In this document: piece by piece, positions 1 through 60,637 of the stretch
Numbering within the stretch: the stretch's first letter is position 1
Layout: every line of letters starts with the position of its first letter
IMG/VR virus record: IMGVR_UViG_2710724122_000003
Span: 1 to 64,000 of that record
DNA length: 64,000 nt
Origin: an uncultured virus (IMG/VR IMGVR_UViG_2710724122_000003)
Lineage: Duplodnaviria > Heunggongvirae > Uroviricota > Caudoviricetes
Reading direction: 5' to 3' (one strand)
Notes under the pieces: model-generated
The model's input: the letters and a program-made list of their open reading frames with translations, nothing else
The model's database searches: none
What the model was told of the DNA's origin: nothing
Made by a program: the position numbers and the translations under genes

Positions 1-514
1 ATGTTGACTGAAGGTCTGGAAGGTTTTTATCATGTGGGAACGATTATGGAACACGGCTGGAAGGCAGATTTATCCCCTACTTTGAAAGACTACAAAAAAG
101 TAATCAGTCAAAATAGATGGATAAGCGTCTTGTTTTCGCCATGCGGTCACTTATATGGTATCCGTATGTATAGACCCTGTTCACTCAGCGATCTTCATCG
201 CATACATCCTTTTTCTATGGCTTGTCCTTGTAATATCGTCCCTACACGACAAACTGAATGTACTCCCTAGCACCGTAATGCTAACGATAACCACCCGAAC
301 CTTTTAGGGAATCGTCCCTGGGCAAGTTCTCGCCCACCCTCATCAGAAGAACAGGATTCCAATCAGGGGTGCTGTTTTTGTAGGCGTATACTCTGTACCC
401 CCTGCACGACCAACAGCCAGCCACGCCGTAACACGTTCCCGCTAAATGTATGGCAGCACGGAATTACGGCTTATCAGTTTTTATTTACGTGGTATCAGGC
501 AATTCCACGCGAAC

Positions 515-586
515 AAAAAACAAAAAAGGCATCTCGAGTTCCTAAATGACCTGTACATTCACAAGACTTCTAGGTTTAGAGATGCC
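515..586 (-). terminator. Terminator/attenuator-like hairpin on the minus strand
   Basis: Inverted repeat GGCATCTC (528-535)/GAGATGCC (579-586), followed on the minus strand by U-rich runs (515-527). Confidence 0.55.
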
Positions 587-635
587 CGGTATATATCTTT
601 TAGACTACAAAATAATCAAATCTAGTATTTACTAG

Positions 636-664
636 TTGAATTTTAGCCCAATCACAGATAAAAT
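636..664 (+). promoter_or_regulatory. SigA-type promoter of the small RNA
   Basis: TTGAAT-17 bp-TAAAAT. Confidence 0.65.
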
Positions 665-670
665 GGGTAT

Positions 671-848
671 ATCAAATAAGCCTAGTCGAAAGGCATAATT
701 GTTTAAGGATAGTGTTGGTGCACTACTTAAACCGAAGTCCTGCTTGGTTACAGGTTACGTCTAGTAAGTGTTGGTAGCAATTACTAGAACTGAGTCATTC
801 CCGCTAAAGGTTGGTAGCCGATAGCATATGGGAGTGGCTTTTTTATTT
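671..848 (+). ncRNA. Putative ~180-nt antisense-type RNA with four TTGGT-loop hairpins (copy-control-like)
   Basis: Promoter upstream; hairpins 701-732, 739-754, 761-787 and 793-839 each have TTGGT in the loop; the last is followed by a T-run; no credible ORF. Confidence 0.6.
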
Positions 849-989
849 TCTGTTCATATTCAATTGTTTTATCGATCTTCGTTTATGTAAAATATCAAAT
901 TATGTTTTGTTTTGTAGAATGATGCTTGTTGTGTACTACGTTACAACAAGCTTTATCCTTTGTAAACTGCGAGATTACGCACTTTTTTC

Positions 990-1364: not shown

Positions 1365-2186
1365 ATGGCTATTACAATTACGGTAGGTAATTACAAAGGT
1401 GGAGTCGGTAAGACCACGAATGCTGTATTGAACTCTTATGAATTCGCTAAAAAGGGCAAGCGTACATTACTTGTTGACCTTGATCCACAAAGTAACGCAA
1501 CCAAGTCTTTAATGTTAACAAAATCAATCCTTAATCCTGATGAAATTGTTACTGTTGAAAAAACATTAATGAAAGGAATACAAGAGGGAAACCTAGACGG
1601 CTTAGAAGTGGAAATTATGGAGAACTTACATTTACTTCCTTCTTACGTTGATTTTCAGGACTTCGCAAAATTCCTTTATAAAAATTGTTCTTCGGAGGCT
1701 GAAGAAGATCATTACTTTAAAGGATTACTTGAAAAGATAAAGCATAAATACGACTACATATTTATCGACGTACCTCCTATGTCACTAGAAGTTACAAAAA
1801 ATGCAGTTGTAGCTTCTGATTATGTTCTAATTGCTCTGCAAACACAAGAACGTTCTCTTACTGGTGCCGAGAATTATATTAATGAACTTATCAAGTTAAA
1901 AGAGCAATATGATCTTGATATTGAAGTAGTTGGCGTTCTTCCTGTCCTATTAAAAAACAACGGTAAAGTTGACGAATACATCATGGAAAATGCTCGTGAA
2001 ATATTTGGAGAAGAAAACCTATTTAAAAACATCGTCCCTCAAATGGAACGTATTAAACGATTTGATGTGAATGGTATTACTGAAAAAGATAGACATGATA
2101 TGAATGTAATTGAACTATACGAAACGATTAGTGATGAATTATTATCTCGTGTTGATATGTTTGAAAAAATGAAGGTTGGTGTGTAA
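1365..2186 (+). CDS. parA: ParA/Soj family partition ATPase
   Basis: Deviant Walker A KGGVGKTT, DLDPQ, IDVPP; GGAG RBS before ATG 1365. Confidence 0.95.
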   Translation: MAITITVGNYKGGVGKTTNAVLNSYEFAKKGKRTLLVDLDPQSNATKSLMLTKSILNPDEIVTVEKTLMKGIQEGNLDGLEVEIMENLHLLPSYVDFQDFAKFLYKNCSSEAEEDHYFKGLLEKIKHKYDYIFIDVPPMSLEVTKNAVVASDYVLIALQTQERSLTGAENYINELIKLKEQYDLDIEVVGVLPVLLKNNGKVDEYIMENAREIFGEENLFKNIVPQMERIKRFDVNGITEKDRHDMNVIELYETISDELLSRVDMFEKMKVGV

Positions 2187-2187
2187 T

Positions 2188-2568
2188 ATGGCAAGAACTC
2201 CTGGTTTATTAGGTCGAAAGAAAAGTAACTTTGAACCTACTGAGCCTTATGTACCGGAACAAGGACAAGCTACGACGGAAAATAAAGAGGTAGCAGCTAC
2301 TGTTACTCCTTCTCAACCTAAGACAGAAGAAAAAACTACTACTCGAAAAGAGAAAAGAATCGAGAAAATTGAACCGAAAAAGAAATTTAAAAACCAGCAA
2401 GGTAGCATTAAAATTTCTAATCAATCAAAAGAAGAACTTGAAGTATTAATGAAACTTACAAACACAAAATTCAATTATGAAATTATCGACCTGCTTATAG
2501 ATCGTTATGTAGAAAATGAGCTAACACCTGATCAGAAAAGGAAATTCAAGCTCTTAACCGAAATTTAA
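2188..2568 (+). CDS. Small centromere-binding partition adaptor (type Ib-like)
   Basis: Directly after parA; disordered N-terminus, short C-terminal ribbon-helix-helix-like segment. Confidence 0.7.
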   Translation: MARTPGLLGRKKSNFEPTEPYVPEQGQATTENKEVAATVTPSQPKTEEKTTTRKEKRIEKIEPKKKFKNQQGSIKISNQSKEELEVLMKLTNTKFNYEIIDLLIDRYVENELTPDQKRKFKLLTEI

Positions 2569-7364: not shown

Positions 7365-7961
7365 TTAATGGAAATCTGTAATAGTGAACACTGATACGTC
7401 TAGCCCTTTGCATAATGACAGCAACCTTTCCCTTCTATACTCCGTCTTCGTGTACCAAATAAACTTAGGTTTCTTCTCAAATACATTGCATTCCATCAGT
7501 TTACGATACTTTTGCATCTTGATACGGTTCGCACTCATCTTTTGCTCATGATCAACCTCTACAATGTGATAACGGCCGTTATCCATAAATAATGCATCTG
7601 CAATTATGGAAACTATACCTTTCACATTCATTTTCACTTCCTGTTTCCACGTTTTCGGGCATTCGTAAGCGATATAGATATCATTCCTCATAATGTAGTG
7701 GCGAAATTGATTAGAACGCTTGAGTACCTTCTTACTTCCGATACGCTCACGCCCCTCCTTGTTGAGATAATAAACCTTCTCTCCATCCCTAAAACTAGAC
7801 ACATATTCTTCAATACCCTTCATTACACGAGATGCATTCCTATCACCACCAAGATCATGAAGTACTTGTATTTGCTTTCTACTAAGAAAGCCGAGTTTCT
7901 TCAAGCTCAAGAGTATACTTTCCGTTCGCGCTTCCTTCATTGCTAACTTTTGCATTTTCAT
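7365..7961 (-). CDS. Replication-relaxation (Replic_Relax) family protein
   Basis: wHTH N-terminus, HYIMRND, ADA...VEVD nuclease-like motif; coupled to FtsK gene. Confidence 0.8.
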   Translation of the reverse strand: MKMQKLAMKEARTESILLSLKKLGFLSRKQIQVLHDLGGDRNASRVMKGIEEYVSSFRDGEKVYYLNKEGRERIGSKKVLKRSNQFRHYIMRNDIYIAYECPKTWKQEVKMNVKGIVSIIADALFMDNGRYHIVEVDHEQKMSANRIKMQKYRKLMECNVFEKKPKFIWYTKTEYRRERLLSLCKGLDVSVFTITDFH

Positions 7962-9177
7962 GCTCCTTTCTCGCTCTGATATTGATGTGTGGTTTTATGA
8001 TGTTATCAATCTGCTTGTTATCGATATAGACAGTCTGTAAGACCTTCTTCTCATTTGTTTGGTATATAGCCCTTCCTTTTATGTTGGGAAGACTCTCTGC
8101 GCCGCCCTCGTCTAGCACAGCACGGCTCCCTGCTTCTGTCTGTAACCTAAAGCAAACACGGGCCCCAATGTTTTGTCGTAACTGCGATGGTAATGCTTCG
8201 TTAGTAGGGTATTGTGTCGCATATACCAAGCGGAATCCCGCTGCTCTGCCACGACGACCTATATCAACAACGATGTCCTTGCACTCCTGATATGGCGTCA
8301 TGTCGGCTGCTTCATCTACAATGACAAAGTATCTAGTTGGATCCCCGGCTTCTTTTATATCTTCATATCCTTTTTCTAGTAAGTATTCGTTTCTAGCATT
8401 CAGTTTATCTTGCAATTCCCTTAGAGTCTCAAGGGCTTCCTCAGGATTCTTCGCAATTGATTCGACTTGATTTAGGAATCTGTATCGGTTGAAAGAGAGA
8501 CCCCCCTTCAAATCGATAAGGAATAGCTTTATATTGTCGGATTGGTTTCGTACCAGAGCTGTAATAATGAGTTTTAATACATTCGATTTCCCCATGTCCG
8601 TCATACCGGCTGATATCATGTGCGATAACTGATCAAAGTCGTGTTTTACTAATCCATCCCTTGTATAACCAATAGGTACTTCCCATCCTTTACATTTCTT
8701 CATCATGTCATCTTCAAACTTAACAAAATCAGGAATCCCTTTCTCGTAAACTCTTATTCTTAGCAAACCGTCGTAAGACAGCTCAATTTCCTTTCTAACG
8801 AGTTTTTTCTTGTTTATGATGTTTTGTATTTGTTTCAAGATATCTTTTTGCAGTCGAAGAGATTTGAAGTCTTGTAGTTTGAAATCATAAACTTTGCTCT
8901 TGTGATTTAGCCCATCTTCTAAATGCTGTATCTTTTGTTCGATATCAGAGAAACTAAGGCCAAGCGGAATTCTATACGCATACTCTATTCCCCACTCATT
9001 TCTCGTCTTACGGAGTAACTGTATAGTCCTGGTTTCTTTACCTTCTTTCACTTTCAAACCGCAATTCGCACAAATCCTTTGAATCTTAGAAGCATCAGTC
9101 GTTGCTCCTTTTTGATGCATTTTTGCTATAAGAATGACACTACCAACTGCAGCTGAACTTACTAACTCAAATATCAA
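7882..9177 (-). CDS. FtsK/SpoIIIE family ATPase
   Basis: Walker A GMTDMGKS, IDLKGG, Walker B VDEA, ATQYP. Confidence 0.92.
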   Translation of the reverse strand: MIFELVSSAAVGSVILIAKMHQKGATTDASKIQRICANCGLKVKEGKETRTIQLLRKTRNEWGIEYAYRIPLGLSFSDIEQKIQHLEDGLNHKSKVYDFKLQDFKSLRLQKDILKQIQNIINKKKLVRKEIELSYDGLLRIRVYEKGIPDFVKFEDDMMKKCKGWEVPIGYTRDGLVKHDFDQLSHMISAGMTDMGKSNVLKLIITALVRNQSDNIKLFLIDLKGGLSFNRYRFLNQVESIAKNPEEALETLRELQDKLNARNEYLLEKGYEDIKEAGDPTRYFVIVDEAADMTPYQECKDIVVDIGRRGRAAGFRLVYATQYPTNEALPSQLRQNIGARVCFRLQTEAGSRAVLDEGGAESLPNIKGRAIYQTNEKKVLQTVYIDNKQIDNIIKPHINIRARKEHENAKVSNEGSANGKYTLELEETRLS

Positions 9178-35763: not shown

Positions 35764-36522
35764 ATGGAAATAAATATTATTCCAAAATTTCTAGATGAAG
35801 CTGTAACACCATTAGCACAAAGAGCAGGGAATACTCTATCCTCAATTTGGACTATTGCATTTGGAGGAATAGATATCTACGCAGAAAAAGCTCAGCTAAA
35901 ACGAGTTCATGCACTGAATCAATTTAAGCAAGAATTAGAACAGGCTGTATCATCTATACCAGAGGAAAATATAGTTGAACCACCATTACATATTGTAGGA
36001 CCAAGCTTAGAGGCATCTAAATATTATTTCGAAAATGATGAACTAAGAACAATGTTTGCTAAACTTATAGCCGCATCGATTAACAAGGAAACAATCTCTA
36101 ATGCTCATCCATCATTTGTCGAAATTATTAAACAGCTTTCTCCATTAGATGCAATTAATTTAAAACTATTTAAAGACAATAACAGACACCCTATAGTCAA
36201 TTATGTCTTTGTTACTGATTCTGGCGGAACAATGCCTCATAAACTAAATACTTTTTTTGGAAGTGATGCTAATACAGATACAGATTTAAACGCAGCATCT
36301 ATTTCAAATTTAGATCGCTTAGGCTTAGTTTCAATTTCTTATGAGCATCATTTAACTGATGATGCTCGTTATACACCACATGAAAATACACTAGAATACA
36401 GAGCCCTGAAAGAACATTTCAAACTTCGCACTCAAAATGCACCTGTTTGCGATATTGATATTCAAAAAGGAATAGTTGACGTTACACCGTTCGGAGAAAA
36501 CTTCATCAAATTATGCATTTAG
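35764..36522 (+). CDS. DUF4393/Abi-alpha family protein
   Basis: IVGPSLEASKY, MFAKLIAAS, HPSFVEIIKQLSPLDA, NLDRLGL, TPFGENF. Confidence 0.85.
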   Translation: MEINIIPKFLDEAVTPLAQRAGNTLSSIWTIAFGGIDIYAEKAQLKRVHALNQFKQELEQAVSSIPEENIVEPPLHIVGPSLEASKYYFENDELRTMFAKLIAASINKETISNAHPSFVEIIKQLSPLDAINLKLFKDNNRHPIVNYVFVTDSGGTMPHKLNTFFGSDANTDTDLNAASISNLDRLGLVSISYEHHLTDDARYTPHENTLEYRALKEHFKLRTQNAPVCDIDIQKGIVDVTPFGENFIKLCI

Positions 36523-40384: not shown

Positions 40385-41140
40385 TTATAATAAACCTTCA
40401 ATCTTTGCTATCGCTTCAAATATTGGATAGATTTGCTGAGGCACAACCGCATTTCCTAAGAATCTCAATCTATCTTCGTCCAATCTTGTGGCAGTCCCAT
40501 CATCCATTCCACAAATTGCGGGTTGATTTTCTTCCCAATATATTCTGGAAAGTGTTCCCCGATTGATCCTGGTAGTGTTTTTCCGTGCTTCCCGTTTGCT
40601 TCTGAAGGGCACAACTCGCGGATCGGCTTGTAATTTTGACTTGTCGTTGGAGTGGCCAATAATAAATGTCCGGTATCTTTGATGTGGTGCGCCGACACTG
40701 ACAGCCGGAAATACGAACGTCCTTGTCGAGTAGTTTTCTTCTTCCAAGTCGGAGAGCACGGTGTCCAAGCCCATTGTGACGTGTCCAGCAACATTTTCTC
40801 CAACAAACCAAGTGGGTCTGAGCTCTCTAATGAGTCGGTAGACTTCTGGCCATAGCCATCTCTCGTCTTCTGCGCCTCTTCGCTTACCAACAAGACTTTC
40901 TCCCTGACAGGGATATCCTGCAGAAATAACTCCAATTGCATCAACGTCAACGCCTCCATCTATTAATGATTGTTTCGTAAGTTTATATAAATCCGGGAAA
41001 ATAGGAATGTGAGGATAGTTCTTTCTAAGCACCTTCTGATTGAACTCTTCTATTTCGCAAAAGGCTACTGTTTCAATCCCAGCCCAATCCGCTGCCATAC
41101 TTACTCCTGCAATTCCCGAGCATAGATCCAACATATTCAT
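40385..41140 (-). CDS. DNA (cytosine-5) methyltransferase, large chain
   Basis: LCSGIAG, GYPCQ, ENV, HQRYR, motif X LGNAVVP; no motif IX in frame. Confidence 0.92.
   Translation of the reverse strand: MNMLDLCSGIAGVSMAADWAGIETVAFCEIEEFNQKVLRKNYPHIPIFPDLYKLTKQSLIDGGVDVDAIGVISAGYPCQGESLVGKRRGAEDERWLWPEVYRLIRELRPTWFVGENVAGHVTMGLDTVLSDLEEENYSTRTFVFPAVSVGAPHQRYRTFIIGHSNDKSKLQADPRVVPFRSKREARKNTTRINRGTLSRIYWEENQPAICGMDDGTATRLDEDRLRFLGNAVVPQQIYPIFEAIAKIEGLL
40465..40959 (-). CDS. Overprinted second chain of the C5-MTase (TRD plus motif IX)
   Basis: GGAGG near start; LLATPT and INPQFVEWMMGLPQDWT motif IX-like sequence in an alternative frame. Confidence 0.75.
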   Translation of the reverse strand: MEALTLMQLELFLQDIPVREKVLLVSEEAQKTRDGYGQKSTDSLESSDPLGLLEKMLLDTSQWAWTPCSPTWKKKTTRQGRSYFRLSVSAHHIKDTGHLLLATPTTSQNYKPIRELCPSEANGKHGKTLPGSIGEHFPEYIGKKINPQFVEWMMGLPQDWTKID

Positions 41141-44339: not shown

Positions 44340-45149
44340 TTAGAATGGCAATGCTTTTCTCCTGTAATCCTTTGTATCTTTGAAAACAATCGCTCTAAAG
44401 TTATTGAAGATACGTGATACAATTCGTTCATCGTATGCACCTTCTAGACGCCCTCCTGTAAGGTTTGTTGTATAAATAGTAGATTTACCTTGCCTGCCAT
44501 CGAAAACATCGAACAACACTCTATTAATGAAGTTTGTTGCTTTTGTATTCGCATCCAATGCGCCTAACTCCGCTCCTAAATCATCTACTATTAATACTTC
44601 TGCTCTTACTAAACTTCTAATGATTGCATCTTCAGTTAAGGAGGAATCTTTACTGAATGTACTTTTAATCTTCCGTAGTAATTCACCAACTGTAACGAAG
44701 ACAACTGACTTCCCTGCTCCCGCAAGCTGATCCGCAATAGCGTAAGCAAGATGTGTTTTCCCTGCTCCGCAATTCCCGGCCATAATCGTGTTAAACACTT
44801 TCTCATTGAGATAGTCCGTTGCGATGACCTTTGCGAGTTCAAGGTTCTTCGCTCCTTCCTCGCTAGTAGGTTGGTAGTTTTCAAAGTTAGCTTTCTTAAT
44901 GTTGCTATCGGCGATCATACTTTGTTGATGGAACATGAACTTCTTCTCATTCGCCTTATCCGCATCATATTTCGCTTGTTCCTGTTGCTGAAGCTTCTTA
45001 CTTTCGTTTTCAAGGAAGCATCGAGGGCAAACAACTTGTCCACCGAACTTCATCTTATTCATGCCGTGCGTATCACACACATCAGAATCCATAGTCATAT
45101 TCACCTTTTTGGCTATATCGGTTGGTATTGCTGCCGCTGCTCTCTGCAT
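44340..45149 (-). CDS. DnaC/IstB-like helicase loader ATPase
   Basis: GNCGAGKT, DDLGAE, TTNL, RIVSR. Confidence 0.92.
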   Translation of the reverse strand: MQRAAAAIPTDIAKKVNMTMDSDVCDTHGMNKMKFGGQVVCPRCFLENESKKLQQQEQAKYDADKANEKKFMFHQQSMIADSNIKKANFENYQPTSEEGAKNLELAKVIATDYLNEKVFNTIMAGNCGAGKTHLAYAIADQLAGAGKSVVFVTVGELLRKIKSTFSKDSSLTEDAIIRSLVRAEVLIVDDLGAELGALDANTKATNFINRVLFDVFDGRQGKSTIYTTNLTGGRLEGAYDERIVSRIFNNFRAIVFKDTKDYRRKALPF

Positions 45150-45942
45150 TGTTTTTCGCTCCTTTTTTAGATTTCATTTGAATAGTTAGTTGATCAAACT
45201 TTTCACGTAGCTTTTTAGGAGATAAGATATTCCCTTGCCAGAATGGATCTGCTTGGCACCAATCAATAACATCTTTAATCTCTTGTGGCTCTCTGTTATC
45301 TCGTTCTCGCATTAATCTAAATTCATTTGCCCAATTATCGAATTTAGGTTCTTTTTGTTTAGGATTATTACCCTTAATAAGTTCGAACAAATATTTCGCT
45401 GCATTGGTGTCGCAAGTTTCAAACTTGTGACGAGAAGTCTTTTTTTCTTTTTCTTTTTCTTTTTCTTTTTCTTTTTCTTTTTGTCCCCGTATCGTTGACG
45501 TATCGTGGGACGTATCGTCAAGACCCGCATAAACACTGAATTTTTGTACTAACGAGGTGTTTTCTGTTCGTTCTAGCACCAGTCGTACTAACGACAAATC
45601 TTTAATACTTTTAAGCTCTTTCTTTATGCAATCCTCAATCGGCTTGCCACCTTTATTAAGGTTGTATTTTCCCCAGTTAAGTATGCAAAGTTCTCTAGTT
45701 TCTTCGTTATAAACCACCAAATCATGATGATTAATAAAGCGATCCAATAAGGCTTTTGCACTTTCAATTGAGTAACCCAATTCAAAGGCCATTTGTTTTC
45801 TAGTTATCTGATAAACTCCAATTTGGTTTGTATGCTCATTAGTCATTAGATAGAGGTAAAAGTATTTATCCTCTGGCGTCATCTCTTCTGAAACTCTTGC
45901 ATCTGACCAGAATGAAGTTTGTACGTGTCTGTATTTCGCCAT
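45082..45942 (-). CDS. Phage replication initiator (replisome organiser)
   Basis: FWSD...EDKYFYLYLMTN N-terminus; FWQGNILSPKKLREKFDQL C-terminus. Confidence 0.9.
   Translation of the reverse strand: MAKYRHVQTSFWSDARVSEEMTPEDKYFYLYLMTNEHTNQIGVYQITRKQMAFELGYSIESAKALLDRFINHHDLVVYNEETRELCILNWGKYNLNKGGKPIEDCIKKELKSIKDLSLVRLVLERTENTSLVQKFSVYAGLDDTSHDTSTIRGQKEKEKEKEKEKEKKTSRHKFETCDTNAAKYLFELIKGNNPKQKEPKFDNWANEFRLMRERDNREPQEIKDVIDWCQADPFWQGNILSPKKLREKFDQLTIQMKSKKGAKNNAESSGSNTNRYSQKGEYDYGF
45440..45524. repeat. Probable lytic origin inside the initiator gene
   Basis: Tandem TTTTTC tract plus three (GA)CGTATCGT iterons. Confidence 0.55.
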
Positions 45943-49847: not shown

Positions 49848-50006
49848 TTAGCCCATTCCGCCTCCAGGATCAACCATCATTCTATACGTATTTTCCTGAA
49901 CAACCTTTGCTGTTTGCGCTGGCTGTTCTTTCTGCTCTTTAGCAGGAGTTATGTATAGTACTCCGACTAAGGCAACTGTTGCTACTATAGCTAACACTTT
50001 TTTCAT
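49848..50006 (-). CDS. aimP: Arbitrium propeptide AimP MKKVLAIVATVALVGVLYITPAKEQKEQPAQTAKVVQENTYRMMVDPGGGMG (not in ORF track)
   Basis: ATGA overlap with aimR stop; signal peptide; C-terminal MMxDPGGG motif. Confidence 0.88.
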   Translation of the reverse strand: MKKVLAIVATVALVGVLYITPAKEQKEQPAQTAKVVQENTYRMMVDPGGGMG

Positions 50007-51232
50007 TTAGCATCACCCTTATACATTATACCAATTTTATTAAATTCTACCAACATCCTTCTAGGTAATTTGCTATAAAACCTATTACCTGCACACTCGA
50101 AATCTACTAACGATTCTTTTAATAAATCAATGTCTTTCAACGCATATCCTAATATACATTTTTTCATAGGACTCAACTTCTCATCTTTTCTTTCAGTTTC
50201 CTTTAAAAGTTTCACCGCCACATCAGAATGACCGATTAACACTTGATAAAAAGCTTCTTCACATACGTTATATATTTCAATTTCCTCCAGTCCTTTATTA
50301 TAGACAAGCTTAATAAAAGCAAAAGTATTCATAACATTTTCTTTTCTTTTAATCGCTCTCTCAAAATGGCATGCACCTAACATTTCTAACGATTTATTGA
50401 TGTACCAAGAAGCTCTTTCATAACTTTCGAAAGTATAAGATTCTGCGAGGTATACCAAAGCTGACACCCTTAAAAGAGAAAAACAATTTTTTTCATCTTT
50501 TAAATTCATAATTTCATGACACAATTCTCTTGATCTATCAACATTATCTTGCATTAAATAGGCGTAAGATAAGCCTTCTTTAATTCTTCCCGCATATGCT
50601 GTTCTAATAAAAGCATCTTGAATTTCTTCGACTTTAGGCAGTAATACTTCAGCGTATTCGAATAATGAATTGAATTTCTCTAAATCATACATCGTATAAA
50701 AAGTTAGTATTCCGTATAAAACCTTCATTTCTTGTGTCTTAATTACCTTACTTTTCTTACGATCTTCTAATTTCTCTAATAAATTTTTACCACTAACGAC
50801 ACCTTTACTTCGCATCCATACCAATTCGTATACATAAGCCCATTCTCTATTCATCGCCAACGAGGACGTTTTTTCTATATCTACAATTAATTTTAATAAT
50901 TCTAAGTCACCTGTTGAATTTGCATATTCCATTGCAATTCTCAAATTTTGTTTGCTCTTTGTAACCGAGCAAAACTTATGTATCATCTCTTTTTTCTTTA
51001 AAACATTGTCATCGTACAAGATATTAAGCAACTTAATCATATTCCAAAAATTAAATTGACTTTTACCTGATAAGTTTTTCGAGAGTGCCCCTCCTGAAAT
51101 ACCTAATTCTTTTGCGATGTCTTCTTGATTCCTTCTTTGAAAATCAATTTCATCGATAATGCTACTTAAGAATTTCATTAATGCTTTTCTTTTTAACTCT
51201 TCTTTTTTTTGTATAAGTGTCTGATCCATCAA
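50003..51232 (-). CDS. aimR: AimR family arbitrium peptide receptor
   Basis: N-terminal HTH, TPR-like helical body (NREWAYVY, GNRFYSKLP), followed by propeptide gene. Confidence 0.9.
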   Translation of the reverse strand: MMDQTLIQKKEELKRKALMKFLSSIIDEIDFQRRNQEDIAKELGISGGALSKNLSGKSQFNFWNMIKLLNILYDDNVLKKKEMIHKFCSVTKSKQNLRIAMEYANSTGDLELLKLIVDIEKTSSLAMNREWAYVYELVWMRSKGVVSGKNLLEKLEDRKKSKVIKTQEMKVLYGILTFYTMYDLEKFNSLFEYAEVLLPKVEEIQDAFIRTAYAGRIKEGLSYAYLMQDNVDRSRELCHEIMNLKDEKNCFSLLRVSALVYLAESYTFESYERASWYINKSLEMLGACHFERAIKRKENVMNTFAFIKLVYNKGLEEIEIYNVCEEAFYQVLIGHSDVAVKLLKETERKDEKLSPMKKCILGYALKDIDLLKESLVDFECAGNRFYSKLPRRMLVEFNKIGIMYKGDAK

Positions 51233-52346: not shown

Positions 52347-54140
52347 AACACTTTCCATTTTAACGGCATAGGCCTTATCTACAAATTGAACATGTTGTTG
52401 TAAATGCATGTAGTTGTTTTCTTGAATGGAAGGAGCCCATACACATAATAACTTTCTAGCTCTAGAAAACGCTACATAACCTACACGTGCTTCTTCTATT
52501 TCTCCATTTTTTCCAAGCCACTCCTTAAGCTGAGATTCGTATTCAGCCATTACCAATACACATTCCGCTTCTTGACCTTTTGCATCATGAATGTTTAAAA
52601 CAGAGCCTTCACTTTCAGAAAAGTGCCCTTGTAGCTCTACTTGCTCTACGAGATGTGATAACATGGTATTCTTTGATGCTTTAACTTGATTCTTCCATTT
52701 GTAATTAAGCATATTTAGTTTTTTCCCTATAGATTTACCATACAGTTTTTTTGATTCTTCCATCAGAAATTTTTTCAGTACTACAAACAGCTCTTCCACC
52801 GATGTTTCTGTTAATACCAGGTTATCTAAAAACTGAAGCGTAAAGATCTGCAATTTCTTCCACATAAACATACTATATCCAATTTCAACTAATGCAATAT
52901 AATTGGGGTGTTCATTAAAAAATAAATAGCTGAAGGCTTCACTCATTCTTTCAACAGCTCTGTCAAATTCATTTCTCCGCTTATATGAGATAGCCAATAT
53001 GAGATTTTGCAAAATTTGAAAGCGACGATAATGCTCTTTTGCTAATTTCTTAAAAAAAGGGCTTACTTCCACTTCTTGTTTTTTTAAAAGATTATTTATA
53101 TTTTTCACATAATCATTCCGTCTAGCTAGAATCATAAATGGCTTCTTTTGTTCCTCACATTCTATATCTGTACAAATACTTTGAAACAATTGAATAGCCT
53201 CTGAAGCCTCTTTAATATCTTTTATAAATATCACCTTTTGCTTTCTTGTAGCATTGTTACCAGCTCCAGTCTGCTCAATTTCTGTTTTATAATTAGCAAA
53301 CTGGACAATGTGTTGCGTACTCCGAAAATTGTTGGTTAACATATAGTTTCTTTGACTCTCATTGTTCCACTTTGCTTGAAATATTTCTGGCTTTGCTCCT
53401 GTAAAGCTATAAATTGATTGATTTGTATCCCCGACGCAAAAGAACGAAGAATGTTCTAGCAAAGAAAATAACTTCTCTTGATAATAAGTAACATCTTGAT
53501 ACTCATCTACAAGAATATATTTAAAGCGGGAACTAAATGCATTTCGAATATGACCATACTTTTTTAAAATAAGATAAGAAAGATAAATCACATCTTGTTG
53601 ATCTATGTACCCTTTATTTTTAATAAAGCTCTTCCAGGTCAATGCATCTGAAGAAGAAATCTTATTTCTATAGCAATAAGGATTTCCCTTTTCATCACGG
53701 CCCAGGCTCTCGAACGCTTTAAATATACTCTCATTAATATGATAATGGGGGCGTCCTAACATATTTGCAATATAATCTTTATATCCCCTAGCAAAGCCCA
53801 CAGAAGCAAGTTTATATGGTATCCCTTCCTTATGCTTAAAGTGTGAATAGGGTTTAATCACATGCTCCAATAAAAATGAATGAATTGTTCCTATAAACAG
53901 CTCATTAGGTAGCTGCACTCCTTCATTTTGTAGTCGCATCATGATTTCTTCTTTAGCCGCATTGGTATAAGTAATACAAGCAATCCCGGACAAAGCATTT
54001 ATGCGATTTTCAATTATATATTTTAACCGCTCTATCAATAACGTCGTTTTACCACTTCCAGGTCCAGCTTGTACAGTAATTGAATCAGTATGAGGAGCAC
54101 ATGCTATACTTTTCCGGAAATCATCATTATCAACCATCAA
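52344..54140 (-). CDS. gajB: Gabija GajB, UvrD-like helicase
   Basis: AGPGSGKT, DEYQD, GDTNQSIY, NFRS, HDAKGQE, YVAFSRA. Confidence 0.88.
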   Translation of the reverse strand: MMVDNDDFRKSIACAPHTDSITVQAGPGSGKTTLLIERLKYIIENRINALSGIACITYTNAAKEEIMMRLQNEGVQLPNELFIGTIHSFLLEHVIKPYSHFKHKEGIPYKLASVGFARGYKDYIANMLGRPHYHINESIFKAFESLGRDEKGNPYCYRNKISSSDALTWKSFIKNKGYIDQQDVIYLSYLILKKYGHIRNAFSSRFKYILVDEYQDVTYYQEKLFSLLEHSSFFCVGDTNQSIYSFTGAKPEIFQAKWNNESQRNYMLTNNFRSTQHIVQFANYKTEIEQTGAGNNATRKQKVIFIKDIKEASEAIQLFQSICTDIECEEQKKPFMILARRNDYVKNINNLLKKQEVEVSPFFKKLAKEHYRRFQILQNLILAISYKRRNEFDRAVERMSEAFSYLFFNEHPNYIALVEIGYSMFMWKKLQIFTLQFLDNLVLTETSVEELFVVLKKFLMEESKKLYGKSIGKKLNMLNYKWKNQVKASKNTMLSHLVEQVELQGHFSESEGSVLNIHDAKGQEAECVLVMAEYESQLKEWLGKNGEIEEARVGYVAFSRARKLLCVWAPSIQENNYMHLQQHVQFVDKAYAVKMESV

Positions 54141-56010
54141 ATCTTACCTCCTCTTCATTCGTAAGAAAACTAAATACCTGCTTGATATATGCTGGAATAT
54201 GAAGAACTTTCCCTTTATTCAATTCATCTAATATGAACTGAGAGAATTGCCCCTTCTCCTTTGAAATAACTTCATAGGCTTCTTTTGCAAATTCGTGCCC
54301 GTCCAAAGTAACAATTCTTTCCCTTTCTGCTTTTGTTCCAATATCGTATGTTTGAATTAATTCACGAAAGAAAGATACATTATTCTCCATCATCAAATCA
54401 TATTCAAATGTTTTAAGATTACTAGATATATAAATATTAGAGGATGTGCTAAAATCATTAATTAAACCAGCTGTTCTTGAACAGACTGGAAACTGACCAA
54501 ATTTCGTAGGATAAACTGCCTCTTTTACAACCTTATCGTCACTTCCAATCACTTCATCCCCATGCATGTCTATTACAGGAACAGATTCTGGATCACTATC
54601 AGTCAAAACAGCACACTTCATATCTAATCCCTTTGATCCAAATAACTGTAAAAACGGTCTAAATGCTACACCATCTACTGAAATAATAGATATCCCTTCA
54701 CTTTCTAATGTTGTATCTTCTCCCGCGTATCCCTTTTGTAGCATAGAGAAAAATTTCGGTATTAATAGACGTTCTGCAATTCCTTCTACTAATAAGACCC
54801 TTCTACCAAAGAAAATATCAGATTTGGTAGCATCTAACCATCTTTCTAAATACCGTTTATAATCTCTTTCCTCTTTTTTATTGGTATCAAAAATTGTTCC
54901 AATACGTTTAGATAATGTCTTATTGTTCCCCTTATAAAACACTACTAAACTATCCAGTTCTGCATGAGAACTAACGTGTGAAGAATGGGTTGTCATAATA
55001 ACCTGGCCCACGACTTTCTGATTAAAGAAATAATTAGCTAAGAACTTTTGTAAATGACTATGCAGATGAGCTTCCGGTTCCTCAACAATTAAAAGTGGAA
55101 ACACATAGTCATGATTTTGATTTCGCTTTTCCTTAATGGCTGTATATTGAGTAAGTAAAAGGCTAATATACAGCAAATTATTATAACCAAGGCCATTCAT
55201 ATCAACAGAATGTACTCTGTCTTCATTTGAACCGATTAGAACCTTTAAATCTTTCAATAAAGCGTCATAGTCACTTTCTCCCATTTGGATTTTTACTTGC
55301 TGTCTCATAGTTCCTGTAATTTTTCTAAGGTGTTCATTGATATCACTCTGTACCTTCTGAATTTCTCTACCTTGCATAATTTGCTCATTAAGCTCATCAA
55401 TTTTCCCTGAAATCTTATGAAGCTCCTCTTCCCCAAGATCGAAATTTTTTAGGATTCTCTGCAATTGACCAGAGGACTTTTTTAATTCAGCATTTGCATC
55501 TCTAAGAGCCCCTACATACTCGACTCCAAACTTGGATAGCATATTAAAATCAAAGGTGTCTAATGTTTCACGCTCCCCACCATAAATTATCCACTCATAC
55601 TCATGAAGGGGTAGCTGAATTTTGCTAATAGGGGTAGCATCAAGAGGAGCTGAAACCGAAATATTTGCCTTTGGTTTGTACTTGTAGGTAAGTTTTGCCT
55701 CTCCTGGATTCCTTGTTAGCCATCTACTTGTAATAGCAAGATCGTTTTCTGTTTCGATTCCTTTTAAAGTTGCCTCAATTGTAATCTCTGGCCAGTTCCC
55801 TTGAATATTGAGTCCACTCCAAAAATCCTCTTGTTGTAATGTTCTTTTTCGTAATGAGTAATTACTATTAAAGATAAGACTCAATGCCTCTAAAAAATTG
55901 GATTTCCCCGCATTATTTTCTCCAATGATTATAGATAAGCCTTCATTCAAGCTTACATTAAACTCTGAAAAGCTTCTGTAATTCAAAATTTTCACATCAG
56001 ATATATACAT
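54130..56010 (-). CDS. gajA: Gabija GajA, OLD-family ABC-ATPase/TOPRIM nuclease
   Basis: GENNAGKS, EEPEAHLH, TTHS, VEGIAE, DSD. Confidence 0.88.
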   Translation of the reverse strand: MYISDVKILNYRSFSEFNVSLNEGLSIIIGENNAGKSNFLEALSLIFNSNYSLRKRTLQQEDFWSGLNIQGNWPEITIEATLKGIETENDLAITSRWLTRNPGEAKLTYKYKPKANISVSAPLDATPISKIQLPLHEYEWIIYGGERETLDTFDFNMLSKFGVEYVGALRDANAELKKSSGQLQRILKNFDLGEEELHKISGKIDELNEQIMQGREIQKVQSDINEHLRKITGTMRQQVKIQMGESDYDALLKDLKVLIGSNEDRVHSVDMNGLGYNNLLYISLLLTQYTAIKEKRNQNHDYVFPLLIVEEPEAHLHSHLQKFLANYFFNQKVVGQVIMTTHSSHVSSHAELDSLVVFYKGNNKTLSKRIGTIFDTNKKEERDYKRYLERWLDATKSDIFFGRRVLLVEGIAERLLIPKFFSMLQKGYAGEDTTLESEGISIISVDGVAFRPFLQLFGSKGLDMKCAVLTDSDPESVPVIDMHGDEVIGSDDKVVKEAVYPTKFGQFPVCSRTAGLINDFSTSSNIYISSNLKTFEYDLMMENNVSFFRELIQTYDIGTKAERERIVTLDGHEFAKEAYEVISKEKGQFSQFILDELNKGKVLHIPAYIKQVFSFLTNEEEVRFDG

Positions 56011-56360
56011 AAAATACCTCCATATTTATGATGATGTTCCAAATAATTCTATTATAGAAGGTATGGTATAGTATATAAACAAATAAACTAACACAAGATT
56101 TAAGAATTATACCTAATATGCTAAGAATGTAAATTATCCCTGTCCAATACAATAAATTGTATTCAAGTTAATATTTTATTAATAAAATTTATTATTTAAA
56201 TGGTCATCAACAAAGACATACTGTGTCCCTATTTCATTGTAAGTGGAGATTATCCCCTTCTTCTAGAAGCTTATAATTTTATCAAATATGACGAATAAGC
56301 CAGTTGGCTCTCTTTTTTTGTTACTTGATTGCAAAAATGATAACATAGACTTAGAAAGGA

Positions 56361-57629
56361 GTGATGATTATGAATCATAGTTTCAAAAAAAAATGTAAAG
56401 TTTGTGAAACTCCATATTTAATAAAATATCAAGTTGGTTATGTACCAGAAAACCATTTTTCTTTCGAGTGCCCAACTTGTGGAGTAATGATTGAAGGAAC
56501 GATTAATGTAGATAATAAAAGTGTTAGAATAGGTTGGAATTTCGATAATTTAATAGATTTCACTGGAAATATTTCAGAATCTAAAGAAGGTTACTGTATG
56601 CAACTAACCGGTGAATTCTATGATGAGAAACTCTCTTCTCTTAAGGATTATTTTCCTTTTACCCCAAGCCCTTTTATGAGAAACCTTGGTCCTCATATAG
56701 AAAAAATGAATGGGTTAGCGGTTTACTTGGCTGAAGATATTCAACAAGATGTCAACAATCATAAAAATCTTGTCAATTTAGTACTTAGTAACAAGAATAA
56801 TGTTAAATATGTTTATTCAGAACTAAAGAGATTAACTAGGAATTTAAATATACCTGAAGAAAAATTTGCTACTGATTACAATATAAACAGATATTCTATA
56901 TTGTTCTCGGCAATTGTAAATAGTATTAGCCCTTTATTAAAGCTAAATGAGAAAAAGTTCCAGGTAGATGATATTAAAAATAATCTTTATAAAATGTATG
57001 AGGATAATATTGAATTTCAAAAAGTTAAAGACTTATTTCAAGATAAATTACCTAGCCTGATTAATTCTTTAATTAACGCTTTTTATTCTTCAATAAGTAT
57101 TATTCCTAATATTGTTCCTATAATTACTTCCGAAACGTTCAACCATAAGAAGATTGAAAAAATAAAGGAGGATTATGGTCTAAGCACAGCTAACTATAAG
57201 ACTCTACTGCAAAATTATGCTGAAAACTATGAAATACTTGGGAAAATAATTCCTTTAATAGTTGTTATTGATAATATCATTAACAGAAAAGACATTAATA
57301 AATTTTCAGACAATACTAATTCACTAGAAAATTTTTTAAATAAACCAATTGGATTTCAAATCCAATACTTAAAAAAAATATCTTCAGGTGTTTCCAGATA
57401 CAATGACCTATCTATTCTAAATAATAAAATACGAAATGCTATAAATCATGCCTCAGTGGAATATGAGTCTATTAGTCAAAAATTAATTTTTAAAGATAAA
57501 AAAATCACAACAGAAAAATATTTAATTGAATTTGCTGAGGAAAACTACGTGATGTTATACCTTCAATTATATTGCCTATTCATCGTTTGTTCACTGGCTA
57601 AGAAGTTTTCAAAAGTAGATGCTACTTAA
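56361..57629 (+). CDS. Zn-ribbon plus HEPN-like protein, putative defence nuclease
   Basis: CKVC...CPTC N-terminus; C-terminal RNAINH (R-X4-H). Confidence 0.7.
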   Translation: MMIMNHSFKKKCKVCETPYLIKYQVGYVPENHFSFECPTCGVMIEGTINVDNKSVRIGWNFDNLIDFTGNISESKEGYCMQLTGEFYDEKLSSLKDYFPFTPSPFMRNLGPHIEKMNGLAVYLAEDIQQDVNNHKNLVNLVLSNKNNVKYVYSELKRLTRNLNIPEEKFATDYNINRYSILFSAIVNSISPLLKLNEKKFQVDDIKNNLYKMYEDNIEFQKVKDLFQDKLPSLINSLINAFYSSISIIPNIVPIITSETFNHKKIEKIKEDYGLSTANYKTLLQNYAENYEILGKIIPLIVVIDNIINRKDINKFSDNTNSLENFLNKPIGFQIQYLKKISSGVSRYNDLSILNNKIRNAINHASVEYESISQKLIFKDKKITTEKYLIEFAEENYVMLYLQLYCLFIVCSLAKKFSKVDAT

Positions 57630-57769
57630 TAAAAAAAGAGATACGTATCTCTTTTTTTATTTTTATTCAACAAAATATGACCAAATCGTTGTAACCAGAA
57701 TCATTACATGAGTTCAGGAAATCTTACATTTCGAAGGGATAAACAATAAAATTCACTTTATTTAGAATA

Positions 57770-58010
57770 TCTAACAGACAAATTAAAGAATCACTAGATA
57801 AGTTACAAACGAAGGCTGAGTCTTTGGAGACTGTAAAAGAGATTCAGGATAAGATCATCTCAACGAAAGATAGTCAAATATGATTTTTAAATGATTAAAT
57901 AGCTAATATATAAACGTCAACTTAATTTGCTAAAAAGAACACAAGAAACAATAAAAAATCAATAGACCTAAATATCTTAATGTTAGATGACGCAGAAGCA
58001 ACTTAATTTA
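57770..58010 (+). pseudogene. Decayed coding remnant
   Basis: Coding-like frame broken by several stop codons. Confidence 0.35.
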
Positions 58011-58528
58011 ACAACTATTTTTTCTTGTAGCAGAACTAGAATCAAATAGGTTAGAAAAGCACCTTAGGATATTTTTTCACTTTCTTTTGAACGCCATACT
58101 AAATATTAACTATATTTGCAAGTCGAATTCTATATTGATTACTAAAAAATAATCTCATATTAATTTTAATTTAATTAAAAATCCAGAAAACAAATCATAT
58201 TCTGGACCTAATTAGAAATGAATCCCATCTAAAGCAACTTTCAAGTTTGTAAATATATATTTTCAAAAAAATTTATATATTTTAATCGTGCGGTTATTTA
58301 TATCTATTTAAAATATACTTAAATTTCTTCCGATTTTATTATAATATATATATATAAATTATTAACTGCTAGGTAATAAAAGACATTTTTTTGATAATGA
58401 ATAAAATTTTATCCGAATAGGAAAATATGTTATTCAAAGGGTTACCAACATAATTATTTCACTGAAATTGTCTCTAACTATTACATTTTATCATGCGGTT
58501 ACATAAAAATAAGGGGAGATTTTTAGGG

Positions 58529-59719
58529 ATGCCTTCGGATAAAGAATTCAAAGCTGTCGTGGATCAATTACGTTTATTAAGAGATCGGAATTTGACTATT
58601 CAAGATTTAAAAAATGCAAAACAACAACTTCATGAAAAAAATTATTTTAATTTAATAAATGGTTTTGAAACCCTTTTATTAGATAACCCTAAAGGTACAT
58701 CTAAATACTATACTAATGTTTTCTTTGACGACTTTTTAAATCTTTATAAACTTGATAATCAACTTTCAAGTTTAATATTCCAAAAAATTTCGGAACTTGA
58801 AAACAAATTAAAGACTTCTATATCTTATCATTTTAGTAAAAATCATTGCTCTACTTTATGTGATAATAATAAATACATTGAACTTACTAGTTATTCTCTT
58901 CCTAAAAGAACAGATGGACCTAAAGAATATACTAAACATTTTAATAAACATAAACTTTTTAAAAAAAACGCTTATTTTGAAGGCATTTTTAGTGGCGATT
59001 TTTCTGGACAAGTGACTTATGATTCCGCCCGTGGTGGGAAAACTATACTCGAAGGAACATTTACAGGCAGATTTGGATCTACATCAATAAATACAGTCCA
59101 AGGTAAGTGCACTTTTTTTAATTCGAATCAAGCATCATTAGTAACACTTATTCGTTCACTTGCCCCTTCATCAGGAACATCTATTACTACAACAATAACC
59201 ATTAGGGATGAAAGAATATATGGTTTAAATTATATCGATGAATGCAAAACTAGATTTCCATTTATAAATGAATATAATAACCCTCCATTTTGGGTTGTTA
59301 TTAAAACCCTAATGTTTAATGATTTAATTCTTTTACTTTATGGACTAAAGAAACGTACTTTTGATGCTATTTTAAGGGATTTTAACCTAAAACCCATAGA
59401 CAAAAAGAAATTTCTAAATTCTTTGCAAATCATTAGAGAATTACGTAATACGTGTGCACATTTCGAATTGGTTAATCGTTTCAGAACATCAAGTTCTTTA
59501 AAAATTAATCAGCATTTAATTTCCGAATTAGGTCTTACACCTATGAGAGCAAATAAATTCGTCCTTAAGTTATATGATGTTTTAAAAATCTTAAAACAAT
59601 ACATTGATTTAACGGAAATTAAATTATTATTATGGAAATATCGTTATGAAGAAAAGCGTGATATTGCAATTTCTTTATTAGATAGAATGGGAAACTCTAA
59701 TATTTTTTACTGGATATAA
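58529..59719 (+). CDS. Abi_2 (AbiD/AbiF) family HEPN protein with internal insertion
   Basis: NYFNLINGF, LYKLD..L..IF..I..LE..LK, PPFWVVI, RNTCAH. Confidence 0.85.
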   Translation: MPSDKEFKAVVDQLRLLRDRNLTIQDLKNAKQQLHEKNYFNLINGFETLLLDNPKGTSKYYTNVFFDDFLNLYKLDNQLSSLIFQKISELENKLKTSISYHFSKNHCSTLCDNNKYIELTSYSLPKRTDGPKEYTKHFNKHKLFKKNAYFEGIFSGDFSGQVTYDSARGGKTILEGTFTGRFGSTSINTVQGKCTFFNSNQASLVTLIRSLAPSSGTSITTTITIRDERIYGLNYIDECKTRFPFINEYNNPPFWVVIKTLMFNDLILLLYGLKKRTFDAILRDFNLKPIDKKKFLNSLQIIRELRNTCAHFELVNRFRTSSSLKINQHLISELGLTPMRANKFVLKLYDVLKILKQYIDLTEIKLLLWKYRYEEKRDIAISLLDRMGNSNIFYWI

Positions 59720-59770
59720 ATTAAACATTAAGTTATTGACCTTTTTTCGTATATATGTTATATTTATTTC

Positions 59771-59861
59771 ATAAAATAACGTATAGCCAAGACGGCGTGT
59801 CAAGCTATCGCAGCTTGCTAAAAGTCCAAAAAAACACTATTCATTAGAATAGTGTTTTTTT
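59771..59861 (+). ncRNA. Putative antitoxin RNA downstream of the AbiF-like gene
   Basis: TTGACC-17-TATATT promoter (59736-59764, with TG), CAAGCT..AGCTTG hairpin, terminator 59828-59861. Confidence 0.6.
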
Positions 59862-59986
59862 GTTACATTTTATTAAACATTAAGTTCACAGCTTTTTCAA
59901 ATTCATCATTTTCAAAAATAAATTAATTCATTTTCTTAATAATAAATTATACAACTTTATTTCAAACTAACATTTTTATTAAAATT

Positions 59987-60637
59987 CTATTCCAGTTCAA
60001 TAAATTCATTAAATTCTTTTTCTAATGTTTTTAATACTTCATATGTAATTTGTCTCATTGTAAACAAATGAGGATTAGTAATTGGCTCAGGATTCCCATC
60101 ATTTCTTTGAAACGTCTCTCCTGTAGAAATCCCTCTAGTCAAATGGAAATAAGAATCACGAAGTTTGCTACCAACATGAGCACCTCCGTCTCGATTTGCA
60201 AGCTCTGTAACAATACTTTTTCTTGTAAATGTGTTACCATATCCATTTGTTAATATCACTTGTTCCTCCCACCATTCCTTAAATGGAATGTATTTCTCTT
60301 CATTCTCATTCAAGTACGGTATCAGTGTAACCCCATCAATGCTAACCTCTTCATAATACATTGGTTTACTCAGTGGCATAATACAAATAGACCCATCCTC
60401 TTGAACCATGTCATGTTTAAATGACGAGTCACAAAAATGTATATCTTTTCGGTCTAGATGTTTTAACAATGATGTTGATTGATTTGTATCATGTAAAAGA
60501 ACCCTAACAGTTGTTGCCATTCTTTTGGCCTCATGATATTTTTGCTTTTTATCAAATACATCAACAGAAGTAATTAAAAAATCATATGCTTCAATTAGAT
60601 TCTCCATAAAATCTTCCTTTTTCAACTTCATAAACAT
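59987..60637 (-). CDS. Hypothetical protein with HEPN-like NRDGGAH motif
   Basis: RVLLHDT..STSLL, WWE, ANRDGGAHV. Confidence 0.7.
   Translation of the reverse strand: MFMKLKKEDFMENLIEAYDFLITSVDVFDKKQKYHEAKRMATTVRVLLHDTNQSTSLLKHLDRKDIHFCDSSFKHDMVQEDGSICIMPLSKPMYYEEVSIDGVTLIPYLNENEEKYIPFKEWWEEQVILTNGYGNTFTRKSIVTELANRDGGAHVGSKLRDSYFHLTRGISTGETFQRNDGNPEPITNPHLFTMRQITYEVLKTLEKEFNEFIELE

Follow-up and report, generated by a model that had tools for sequence, protein, structure and literature searches.

A non-coding module with a predicted long structured RNA and a small RNA is the likely plasmid-state replicon of a Bacillus cereus group phage-plasmid

How does a phage-plasmid replicate as a plasmid when no gene for a replication initiator (Rep) protein is found beside its partition genes? 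The question is raised by the IMG/VR record IMGVR_UViG_2710724122_000003, which is classed as a provirus and is 72,065 b long; we analysed its bases 1–64000, referred to here as the window. The record, a phage-plasmid of siphovirus type from the Bacillus cereus group, contains genes for terminase, portal, capsid, tail, and lysis functions. An earlier note on this DNA had singled out ~950 bp at the left end of the window and had read them as part of a Rep-less replicon controlled by an antisense RNA. Comparison with relatives leads us to conclude that these bases belong to a conserved module without open reading frames (ORFs), that this module is probably the replicon of the phage-plasmid in its plasmid state, and that it would work without an initiator protein encoded within it. 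The module is predicted to give rise to two RNAs from opposite strands, a long structured RNA read leftward from the minus strand and a small RNA (sRNA) read rightward from the plus strand.

1–970: ORF-free module, of which the window holds the right-hand ~85 per cent (the whole module extends from about −180 to 970, ~1.15 kb, negative positions lying left of the window)

The limits of the module are set by conservation, which among 38 aligned relatives is 0.8–1.0 from about −175 to about 970 and about 0.4–0.6 outside. The record begins at position 1, which is also the ATG of a spurious ORF, and the window therefore lacks the left end of the module. In contig L041 (99.8 per cent identity) and in two complete plasmids, the conserved sequence reaches ~180 b beyond the left end of the window, and the sequence common to pBCN and a B. 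toyonensis plasmid starts 181 b left of window position 1. The left limit of conservation is placed at about −180 in close relatives and at about −115 in divergent ones (nhmmer boundaries included). On the right, homology ends at ~966–978; many relatives match over 4–966 and then run into other partition cassettes. The earlier note had described more than 500 nt of visibly GC-richer, hairpin-prone sequence that runs off the window; G+C content is 40.3 per cent in 1–1000 versus 31.7 per cent in 1001–2000, and conservation carries on to about −180.

The module is widespread among Bacillus plasmids. By blastn, 114 plasmid records match positions 1–1000, 111 of them from Bacillus, and 79 cover at least 80 per cent of the query; for 29 of 30 of the matches listed, no annotated feature lies beneath the match. 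The Bacillus plasmids that bear the module range in size from 7-kb cryptic plasmids to plasmids of 230 kb, and one phage record matches it as well. An exact 23-nt hairpin-loop pattern occurs at 8 loci in species-representative genomes and at 32 in IMG/VR.

No conserved ORF was found inside the module when 38 relatives were compared, which agrees with the earlier view that these bases hold no credible gene. The sole sizeable ORF (1–270, plus strand, 89 amino acids) is intact in two of the 38, and relative L028 has no ORF of at least 45 amino acids within the module. A protein-coding reading of 1–270 and of the other ORFs was dropped for this lack of conservation. The neighbouring genes are not conserved either. 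At 46 loci, the nearest ORFs on the left fall into 33 unrelated clusters, with no gene conserved left of the module (those of pBCN and the B. toyonensis plasmid, for instance, are unrelated to each other), and position 1 therefore has no rep gene immediately to its left, which the earlier note had named as a refutation. The right-hand neighbours vary among parA types, a ~170-amino-acid gene, and a RepA-like gene.

Four lines of evidence lead us to regard the module as a replicon: no other element is common to plasmids of 7–230 kb; none of the 106 ORFs of at least 60 amino acids on eight small plasmids (6.9–8.5 kb) matches a Pfam Rep family at E ≤ 1e-4; the module adjoins partition genes, where replicons sit; and its architecture mirrors that of oripLS20, a proven Rep-less replicon. 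The eight plasmids in the scan for Rep families bear either the whole module or its control half (503–870, which includes the sRNA gene). Four plasmids of 7.3–8.5 kb (L010, L055, L056, and L057) hold the module over nearly its whole length, and the small plasmids and the 72-kb record have in common only the module and a resolvase.

The long RNA of the module is predicted from its conserved fold, for which the following features are relevant.

5–423, minus strand: structured core of the long RNA (RNAalifold, 18 sequences)
185–289, minus strand: best-supported domain, with four nested helices and a 5-bp pseudoknot
71–123, minus strand: long hairpin (helix 15), with a base, TTATCC / GGATAA, that is invariant in 18 of 18 sequences
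4–33, plus strand: TTGACT-18-TATCAT, with 10 of 12 promoter matches, conserved across the whole family

The consensus of the core comprises 118 pairs, 38 of which are changed on both sides. In total, 96.9 per cent of the cells are paired, as opposed to 38–46 per cent when the partners are slid by 1–3 columns, and none of 500 shuffles matches this value. Long-range helices (419–423 with 5–9, and 290–301 with 55–65) are predicted to close the core. Specifically, in the domain at 185–289, 99.5 per cent of the cells are paired (slid controls, 32–47 per cent; 0 of 500 shuffles) and 20 of 37 pairs are changed on both sides. In five sequences, AGCCA/TGGCT takes the place of the pseudoknot TATCG/CGATA, a swap that may represent a single event. 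The covariance model of this domain (R1) matches the window at 185–289 on the minus strand with 123.9 bits. Of the 19 pairs of helix 15, 10 never vary. A search of Rfam 15 returned no match at the gathering score in the 64 kb and nothing relevant at E ≤ 10 in 1–1400.

Judged by these alignments, the long RNA with the conserved structure lies on the minus strand, because of the covariation and because the core consensus contains many invariant G·U pairs, which would be A·C on the opposite strand. The consensus energy of 36–600 is −96.9 kcal/mol for the minus strand versus −49.1 kcal/mol for the plus strand; in the sRNA region, consensus folding favours the plus strand. The long non-coding RNA that the earlier note had placed opposite the sRNA is thereby supported. 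The site at 4–33, in which TTGAC does not vary among 12 family sequences, is either a second promoter that faces the gene of the long RNA or a part of the long RNA itself, with AGUCA paired to UGGCU at 419–423 (helix 4, which shows no double covariation). A long plus-strand RNA that starts from 4–33 is disfavoured by both the strand asymmetry of the consensus fold and the invariant G·U pairs.

An RNA of this kind need not serve replication. Phages and plasmids are known to have large structured RNAs without an assigned function, and the long RNA could be a structured non-coding RNA with another job (stability, exclusion, or anti-defence) on a plasmid that replicates otherwise. We consider this improbable: it would leave the small plasmids without any recognisable replicon, both the antisense-RNA layout and a place next to partition genes are characteristic of replicons, and the RNA has neither a match in Rfam nor a toxin-like ORF opposite the sRNA. 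As read from the sequence, the RNA opposite the sRNA has only ORFs of 4–7 codons, and a type I toxin–antitoxin system was rejected on these grounds.

Nor need the long RNA end with the module. The nearest left-hand ORFs are on the minus strand at 33 of the 46 loci, and in the near-identical L041 no minus-strand terminator was found between the module and a 262-amino-acid ORF, as would suit a giant regulated leader from which the leftward RNA enters the cargo genes on the left, with the sRNA and a terminator gating their expression. The same co-orientation is equally expected downstream of a unidirectional origin, however, and the genes in question belong to 33 unrelated clusters, with conservation stopping sharply 0–690 b short of them. 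Moreover, the module is retained on 7-kb cryptic plasmids, and to our knowledge no leader type has a core of ~420 nt that contains a pseudoknot and long-range helices. We therefore give a leader function little credence.

If the module is a replicon, its control is expected to reside in the sRNA, the gene of which shows the following features.

622–635: palindrome CTAGTATTTACTAG, abutting the −35 hexamer of the sRNA promoter
636–664, plus strand: sigma-A-type promoter TTGAAT-17-TAAAAT, with hexamers kept in divergent members
670–851, plus strand: ~180-nt sRNA, with a 5' hairpin, three UUGGU-loop hairpins, a terminator stem, and a T-run
924–951, plus strand: hairpin of 10 bp with TTTATCCTTT after it, at the module's right edge and kept in close relatives only

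Both the SigA promoter and the ~180-nt RNA with four TTGGT-loop hairpins and a terminator had been proposed in the earlier note, and the family comparison upholds them: the plus strand is predicted to encode an sRNA with a conserved promoter, a conserved terminator, and hypervariable loops. All 45 distinct family sequences have a promoter-like match where one is expected. The promoter hexamers, the 5' hairpin, and the terminator are kept even in the most divergent members, which are BTB_15p (the 15-kb plasmid of Bt407) and the 7.7-kb NJ-W plasmid. The palindrome before the −35 hexamer reads CTAGTAnTTACTAG in four of the five sequences of alignment A1 and GAGTAATTACCAG in NJ-W. Positions 670–852 fold as stacked hairpins (−55.7 kcal/mol, z = −3.2). 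TTGGT begins at 715, 744, 771, and 811 (two of the four read TTGGTAG), which makes four occurrences in 183 nt versus 0.19 expected from the window average and is the densest cluster in the 64 kb. The fourth loop, UUGGUAG, is held by the terminator stem at 794–840 (stem plus T-run, ~794–851); in 18 family members, 7 of the 16 pairs of the terminator are changed on both sides. Compensatory changes in the sRNA of divergent members include CCC/GGG to CTC/GAG. The RNAalifold consensus of the sRNA over divergent members recovers the terminator alone, because the number of hairpins differs between them.

In 33 near relatives, the sRNA stems are almost invariant, the loops vary (UUGGUG, GUGGUA, AUGGUA, and others), and whole hairpins occur as two alleles. 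Fixed stems with changing loops are expected where loop–loop recognition is pressed to diversify, as in antisense-controlled plasmids. One 61.7-kb IMG/VR contig (L021 and L025) and one genome (L012 and L018) each hold two copies from the module family. The sRNA loops are slightly unlike between the copies of each pair, and such co-resident modules are consistent with compatibility defined by the loops.

The remaining elements of the control half would act on the leftward transcript.

863–891, minus strand: weak candidate promoter of the leftward RNA, TTTACA-17-AACAAT, with 9 of 12 promoter matches
513–586, minus strand: terminator- or attenuator-like element, consisting of a hairpin (528–586) followed by UUUUUUGUUUUUUGUU (513–527)
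487–510, minus strand: small conserved hairpin CGTGG...CCACG (helix 3), just after the U-tract

The earlier note had suggested an extended −10 element at 893–902 as the start of this transcript, for which we obtained no specific support; the promoter scan gives TTTACA-17-AACAAT at 891–863 instead. In 44 of 45 sequences, a promoter-like site is present within 110 nt to the right of the sRNA terminator, as scored with a loose threshold and with hexamers that differ among sequences. If the promoter at 863–891 is used, the first ~180 nt of the leftward RNA would be fully complementary to the sRNA. Of the terminator-like hairpin that had been noted at 515–586, the conserved hairpin and its U-tract stand, and the coordinates needed correction (stem 528–586, U-tract 513–527). 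Five of its nine pairs (helix 1) are changed on both sides, and in the BTB_15p and NJ-W plasmids the arms are compensatorily replaced around an unchanged apical loop. By itself, the hairpin has a folding energy of −26.7 kcal/mol.

RNA libraries were available to us as assembled contigs only, which give no strand, true ends, or levels. In each of four separately assembled runs of one study, a single contig of 772–848 nt extends from −179..−163 to 611..673 of the window, at a depth of 60–147; the parA contigs of these runs have depths of 15.6–37.7. In a second study, the module contig has a depth of 616 versus 107 for the parA contig. These contigs are consistent with an abundant RNA whose length approximates that of the conserved minus-strand region. 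No contig of the four runs was placed on ~674–1258, an absence that carries no weight; in two studies other than the first, contigs run through this stretch. Neither inspection by eye nor promoter scans revealed a minus-strand promoter near 675–710 that would fit the contig ends. That the right end falls near the sRNA start because the duplex of sRNA and target is cleaved there is speculation.

These elements can be assembled into a mechanism. A leftward transcript would start to the right of the sRNA gene, so that its 5' ~180 nt would be the exact complement of the sRNA. It would get past a leaky terminator (586–513) and fold into the core (423–5), and near the left end of the module (~0 to −180) the long RNA would open or prime the DNA for the replication enzymes of the host. 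Replication would then proceed leftward, in the direction of most neighbouring genes (33 of 46). The loops of the sRNA would pair with the 5' part of the nascent long RNA and would cut the yield of functional long RNA via termination, misfolding, or RNase III cleavage. Copy number would be set in this way, and incompatibility types would be determined by the rapidly changing loops; we infer that control of both copy number and incompatibility is the role of the sRNA. Attenuation is the weakest part of the proposed mechanism.

Additionally, the two halves of the module appear in different combinations. Window positions 503–860 are 67 per cent identical to positions 1388–1716 of BTB_15p (nhmmer E = 4e-42), and the BTB_15p and NJ-W plasmids have only the control half (503–870) in common with the window. 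Behind it, both carry another ~600-nt sequence, and they are 82.5 per cent alike over 1.0 kb; the BTB_15p module is a conserved, ORF-free 1.0 kb of its own. For the BTB_15p-type sequence, too, the minus strand gives the better fold (−129 versus −100 kcal/mol; five sequences), and covariance model R1 finds no match in its core. A more far-reaching version of the mechanism is a tentative possibility, for which we would claim less than for the replicon itself. In it, a ~0.7-kb RNA with a ribozyme-grade fold, made from the plasmid's own DNA, would replace Rep by opening or priming the DNA at the left end, and a kissing-loop sRNA would meter it, with loops that define incompatibility groups; the control and 'initiator RNA' halves would be exchangeable cassettes (at least two unrelated cores with one control region), and the Rep-less origins of pLS20 and pHT1030 would work likewise.

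A Rep-less replicon in Bacillus is a known kind of element, and the replication module oripLS20 of pLS20 was reportedly described by Meijer et al. in 1995 (cited in PMC8557374). According to PMC8557374, oripLS20 is an experimentally defined replicon of 1.1 kb without a rep gene, situated beside alp7AR, and very little is said to be known of how replication of pLS20 starts. Our consensus of the oripLS20 core (L069:530–1240 of pLS20 and five relatives) has 192 pairs, 36 of them changed on both sides, with a long hairpin and TTTTTTGTTTG ahead of it, and points away from the partition operon. Both elements are alike in being ~1.1 kb long (~1.15 kb here), free of a rep gene or conserved ORF, placed beside a partition operon (with parA at 1365 in the window) and pointing away from it, and restricted to Bacillus; in each, the core folds as a large RNA after a long hairpin, which in pLS20 comes with TTTTTTGTTTG. 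The two layouts are mirror images of each other. They differ in that pLS20 has a perfect DnaA box, whereas the module has none within one mismatch, and in that partition relies on Alp7A/R in pLS20 and on ParA here.

A second comparison is with ori1030, the origin of the pHT304/315/370 and pBS0E vectors. According to Lereclus and Arantes (1992, Mol Microbiol 6:35), ori1030 of pHT1030 is reported to be a minimal replicon of ~1 kb without a replication protein, from a 15-kb plasmid of serovar thuringiensis. We take BTB_15p to be pHT1030, judging from its size and serovar. The 15-kb plasmids of Bt407 and IS5056 bear a 1.0-kb ORF-free module with a control half homologous to 503–860, whereas the half of the BTB_15p module that folds as RNA has no sequence relationship to the core in the window. 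The putative link between the module and ori1030 comes from the similarity to BTB_15p; among the plasmid matches there was no vector record. PMC5678133 and PMC10101014 name ori1030 as the origin.

The antisense-controlled replicons of other families share parts of the design. Like ColE1, the module has no plasmid initiator encoded within the replicon (38 relatives; unrelated left neighbours) and has UUGG-type loops. In ColE1, RNA I is complementary to the 5' part of the long RNA II, which is directed to the origin, and the same arrangement would hold here from a predicted start site. Variation of the loops is the basis of incompatibility in ColE1-type plasmids. The ColE1 primer is made by RNase H and extended by DNA polymerase I; replicons of pLS20 are independent of this polymerase. 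The module differs from ColE1 in its Gram-positive host, in the terminator-like hairpin between the target and the body of the RNA, and in the body itself, a covarying multi-helix fold with a pseudoknot. The kinship with ColE1 RNA I that the earlier note had suggested was not borne out, as Rfam yielded no match to RNA I or to another family. With pT181 and the Inc18 plasmids (pIP501/pAMbeta1), the module would share convergent promoters, an sRNA complementary to a leader, and an intrinsic terminator after the target, but the terminator is followed by ~700 nt of non-coding RNA and then by unrelated genes rather than by a rep gene, and no mutually exclusive pre-emptor fold was found in the module. 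By these sequence tests, the module falls outside the ColE1, pT181/Inc18, and oripLS20 families. Our literature searches found no paper that describes the long RNA with its pseudoknot, the antisense sRNA, or the exchange of cores; PMC8026635, a survey of these plasmid prophages, names in its available part no replication genes other than those for proteins.

Several observations weigh against a replicon that dispenses with an initiator protein. There is no enrichment of DnaA boxes: positions 1–1000 contain two sites with two mismatches (70–78, plus strand; 116–124, minus strand), which are the arms of the hairpin at 71–123 read as DnaA-box-like sequences, and such sites occur at chance frequency (256 across the window versus 262 expected), for which reason a DnaA-box origin was dropped. 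The leftward promoter is a consensus-level match in AT-rich DNA, and promoter-like sites in 1–1400 are at chance level (4 found, 5.0 expected). No alternative antiterminator fold was found in a masking test that is thermodynamic only: masking the sRNA target did not remove the terminator-like hairpin from the minimum-energy fold, and an antiterminator switch was rejected. The contigs of one RNA study end near 611–673 rather than ~860, and they carry no strand. The module has no similarity to oripLS20 by nhmmer profile, by blastn with word size 7, or by covariance model R1 (pBatNRS213 1–1500).

Furthermore, candidates for a protein initiator exist. The record encodes a DnaD-like and DnaC-like phage replication pair at 44343–45942 (PHROGs names) and a Replic_Relax protein at 7368–7961, which PHROGs names 'replication initiation protein'. 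A neighbour of the module in BTB_15p bears the NCBI name 'replication initiator RepA' and has weak RepA_N similarity, and MOB-suite types relatives as rep_cluster_1698. Finally, eight of eight small plasmids carry just to the right of the module a conserved protein of 110–203 amino acids without a family match, which may function in stability or be a Rep that has escaped recognition.

L010:3977–4576: conserved small-plasmid protein, with homologues in L011 and L060–L065

The module could accordingly be an origin with its control region that still needs a protein initiator from elsewhere, the long RNA being only a primer or a regulator. We regard this as unlikely, since no candidate protein travels with the module. 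The phage pair and the Replic_Relax protein are missing from the small plasmids, the conserved protein of the small plasmids has no tblastn match in the 72-kb record, and the right-hand neighbours differ as the left-hand ones are unrelated. A specific initiator normally co-evolves with its origin. The module itself thus remains for us the likely replicon.

The other genes of the record complete the picture of the phage-plasmid. The partition genes next to the module, and the repeats beside parA that are probably centromere sites, are arranged as follows.

~990–1340 and 2570–2615: arrays of CCCTATTTCC / ATATCCCTAT-type repeats in both orientations, flanking parA and the adaptor gene
1365–2568, plus strand: partition cassette (parA and adaptor), adjoining the module
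1365–2186, plus strand: parA (Pfam AAA_31/CbiA; PHROG ParA-like)
2188–2568, plus strand: small adaptor gene beside parA (weak DUF5388 match)

The Replic_Relax protein overlaps an FtsK/SpoIIIE-like ATPase (7368–9177), and the pair may have a DNA-transfer or an alternative replication function. An AimR-like regulator at 50006–51232 (E = 3.8e-42) suggests an arbitrium-type lysis–lysogeny switch. At 52347–56010, an OLD-like AAA_15/TOPRIM protein adjoins a UvrD-type helicase, which resembles a defence pair of the Gabija type. More defence-type genes encode Abi_alpha, Abi_2, an AspBHI/Mrr-like restriction endonuclease, and a C5 cytosine methylase.

35764–36519, 58493–59716, 62636–63802, and 40388–41140: further defence-type genes

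G+C content is 24–27 per cent across 56001–60000 versus ~35 per cent in the rest of the record, and this low-G+C stretch is probably recently acquired cargo.

The Rep-less theta replicons of Bacillus (pLS20 and pHT1030/ori1030) were already known in the early 1990s, and shuttle vectors in wide use are built on them. The covarying RNA with its antisense regulator, here and in the fold of the oripLS20 core, provides a concrete and testable object for Rep-less initiation. If the proposed role is true, it would explain how many phage-plasmids of the B. cereus group persist as plasmids and why related modules can co-exist in one cell, and it would guide the design of compatible vectors with tunable copy number.

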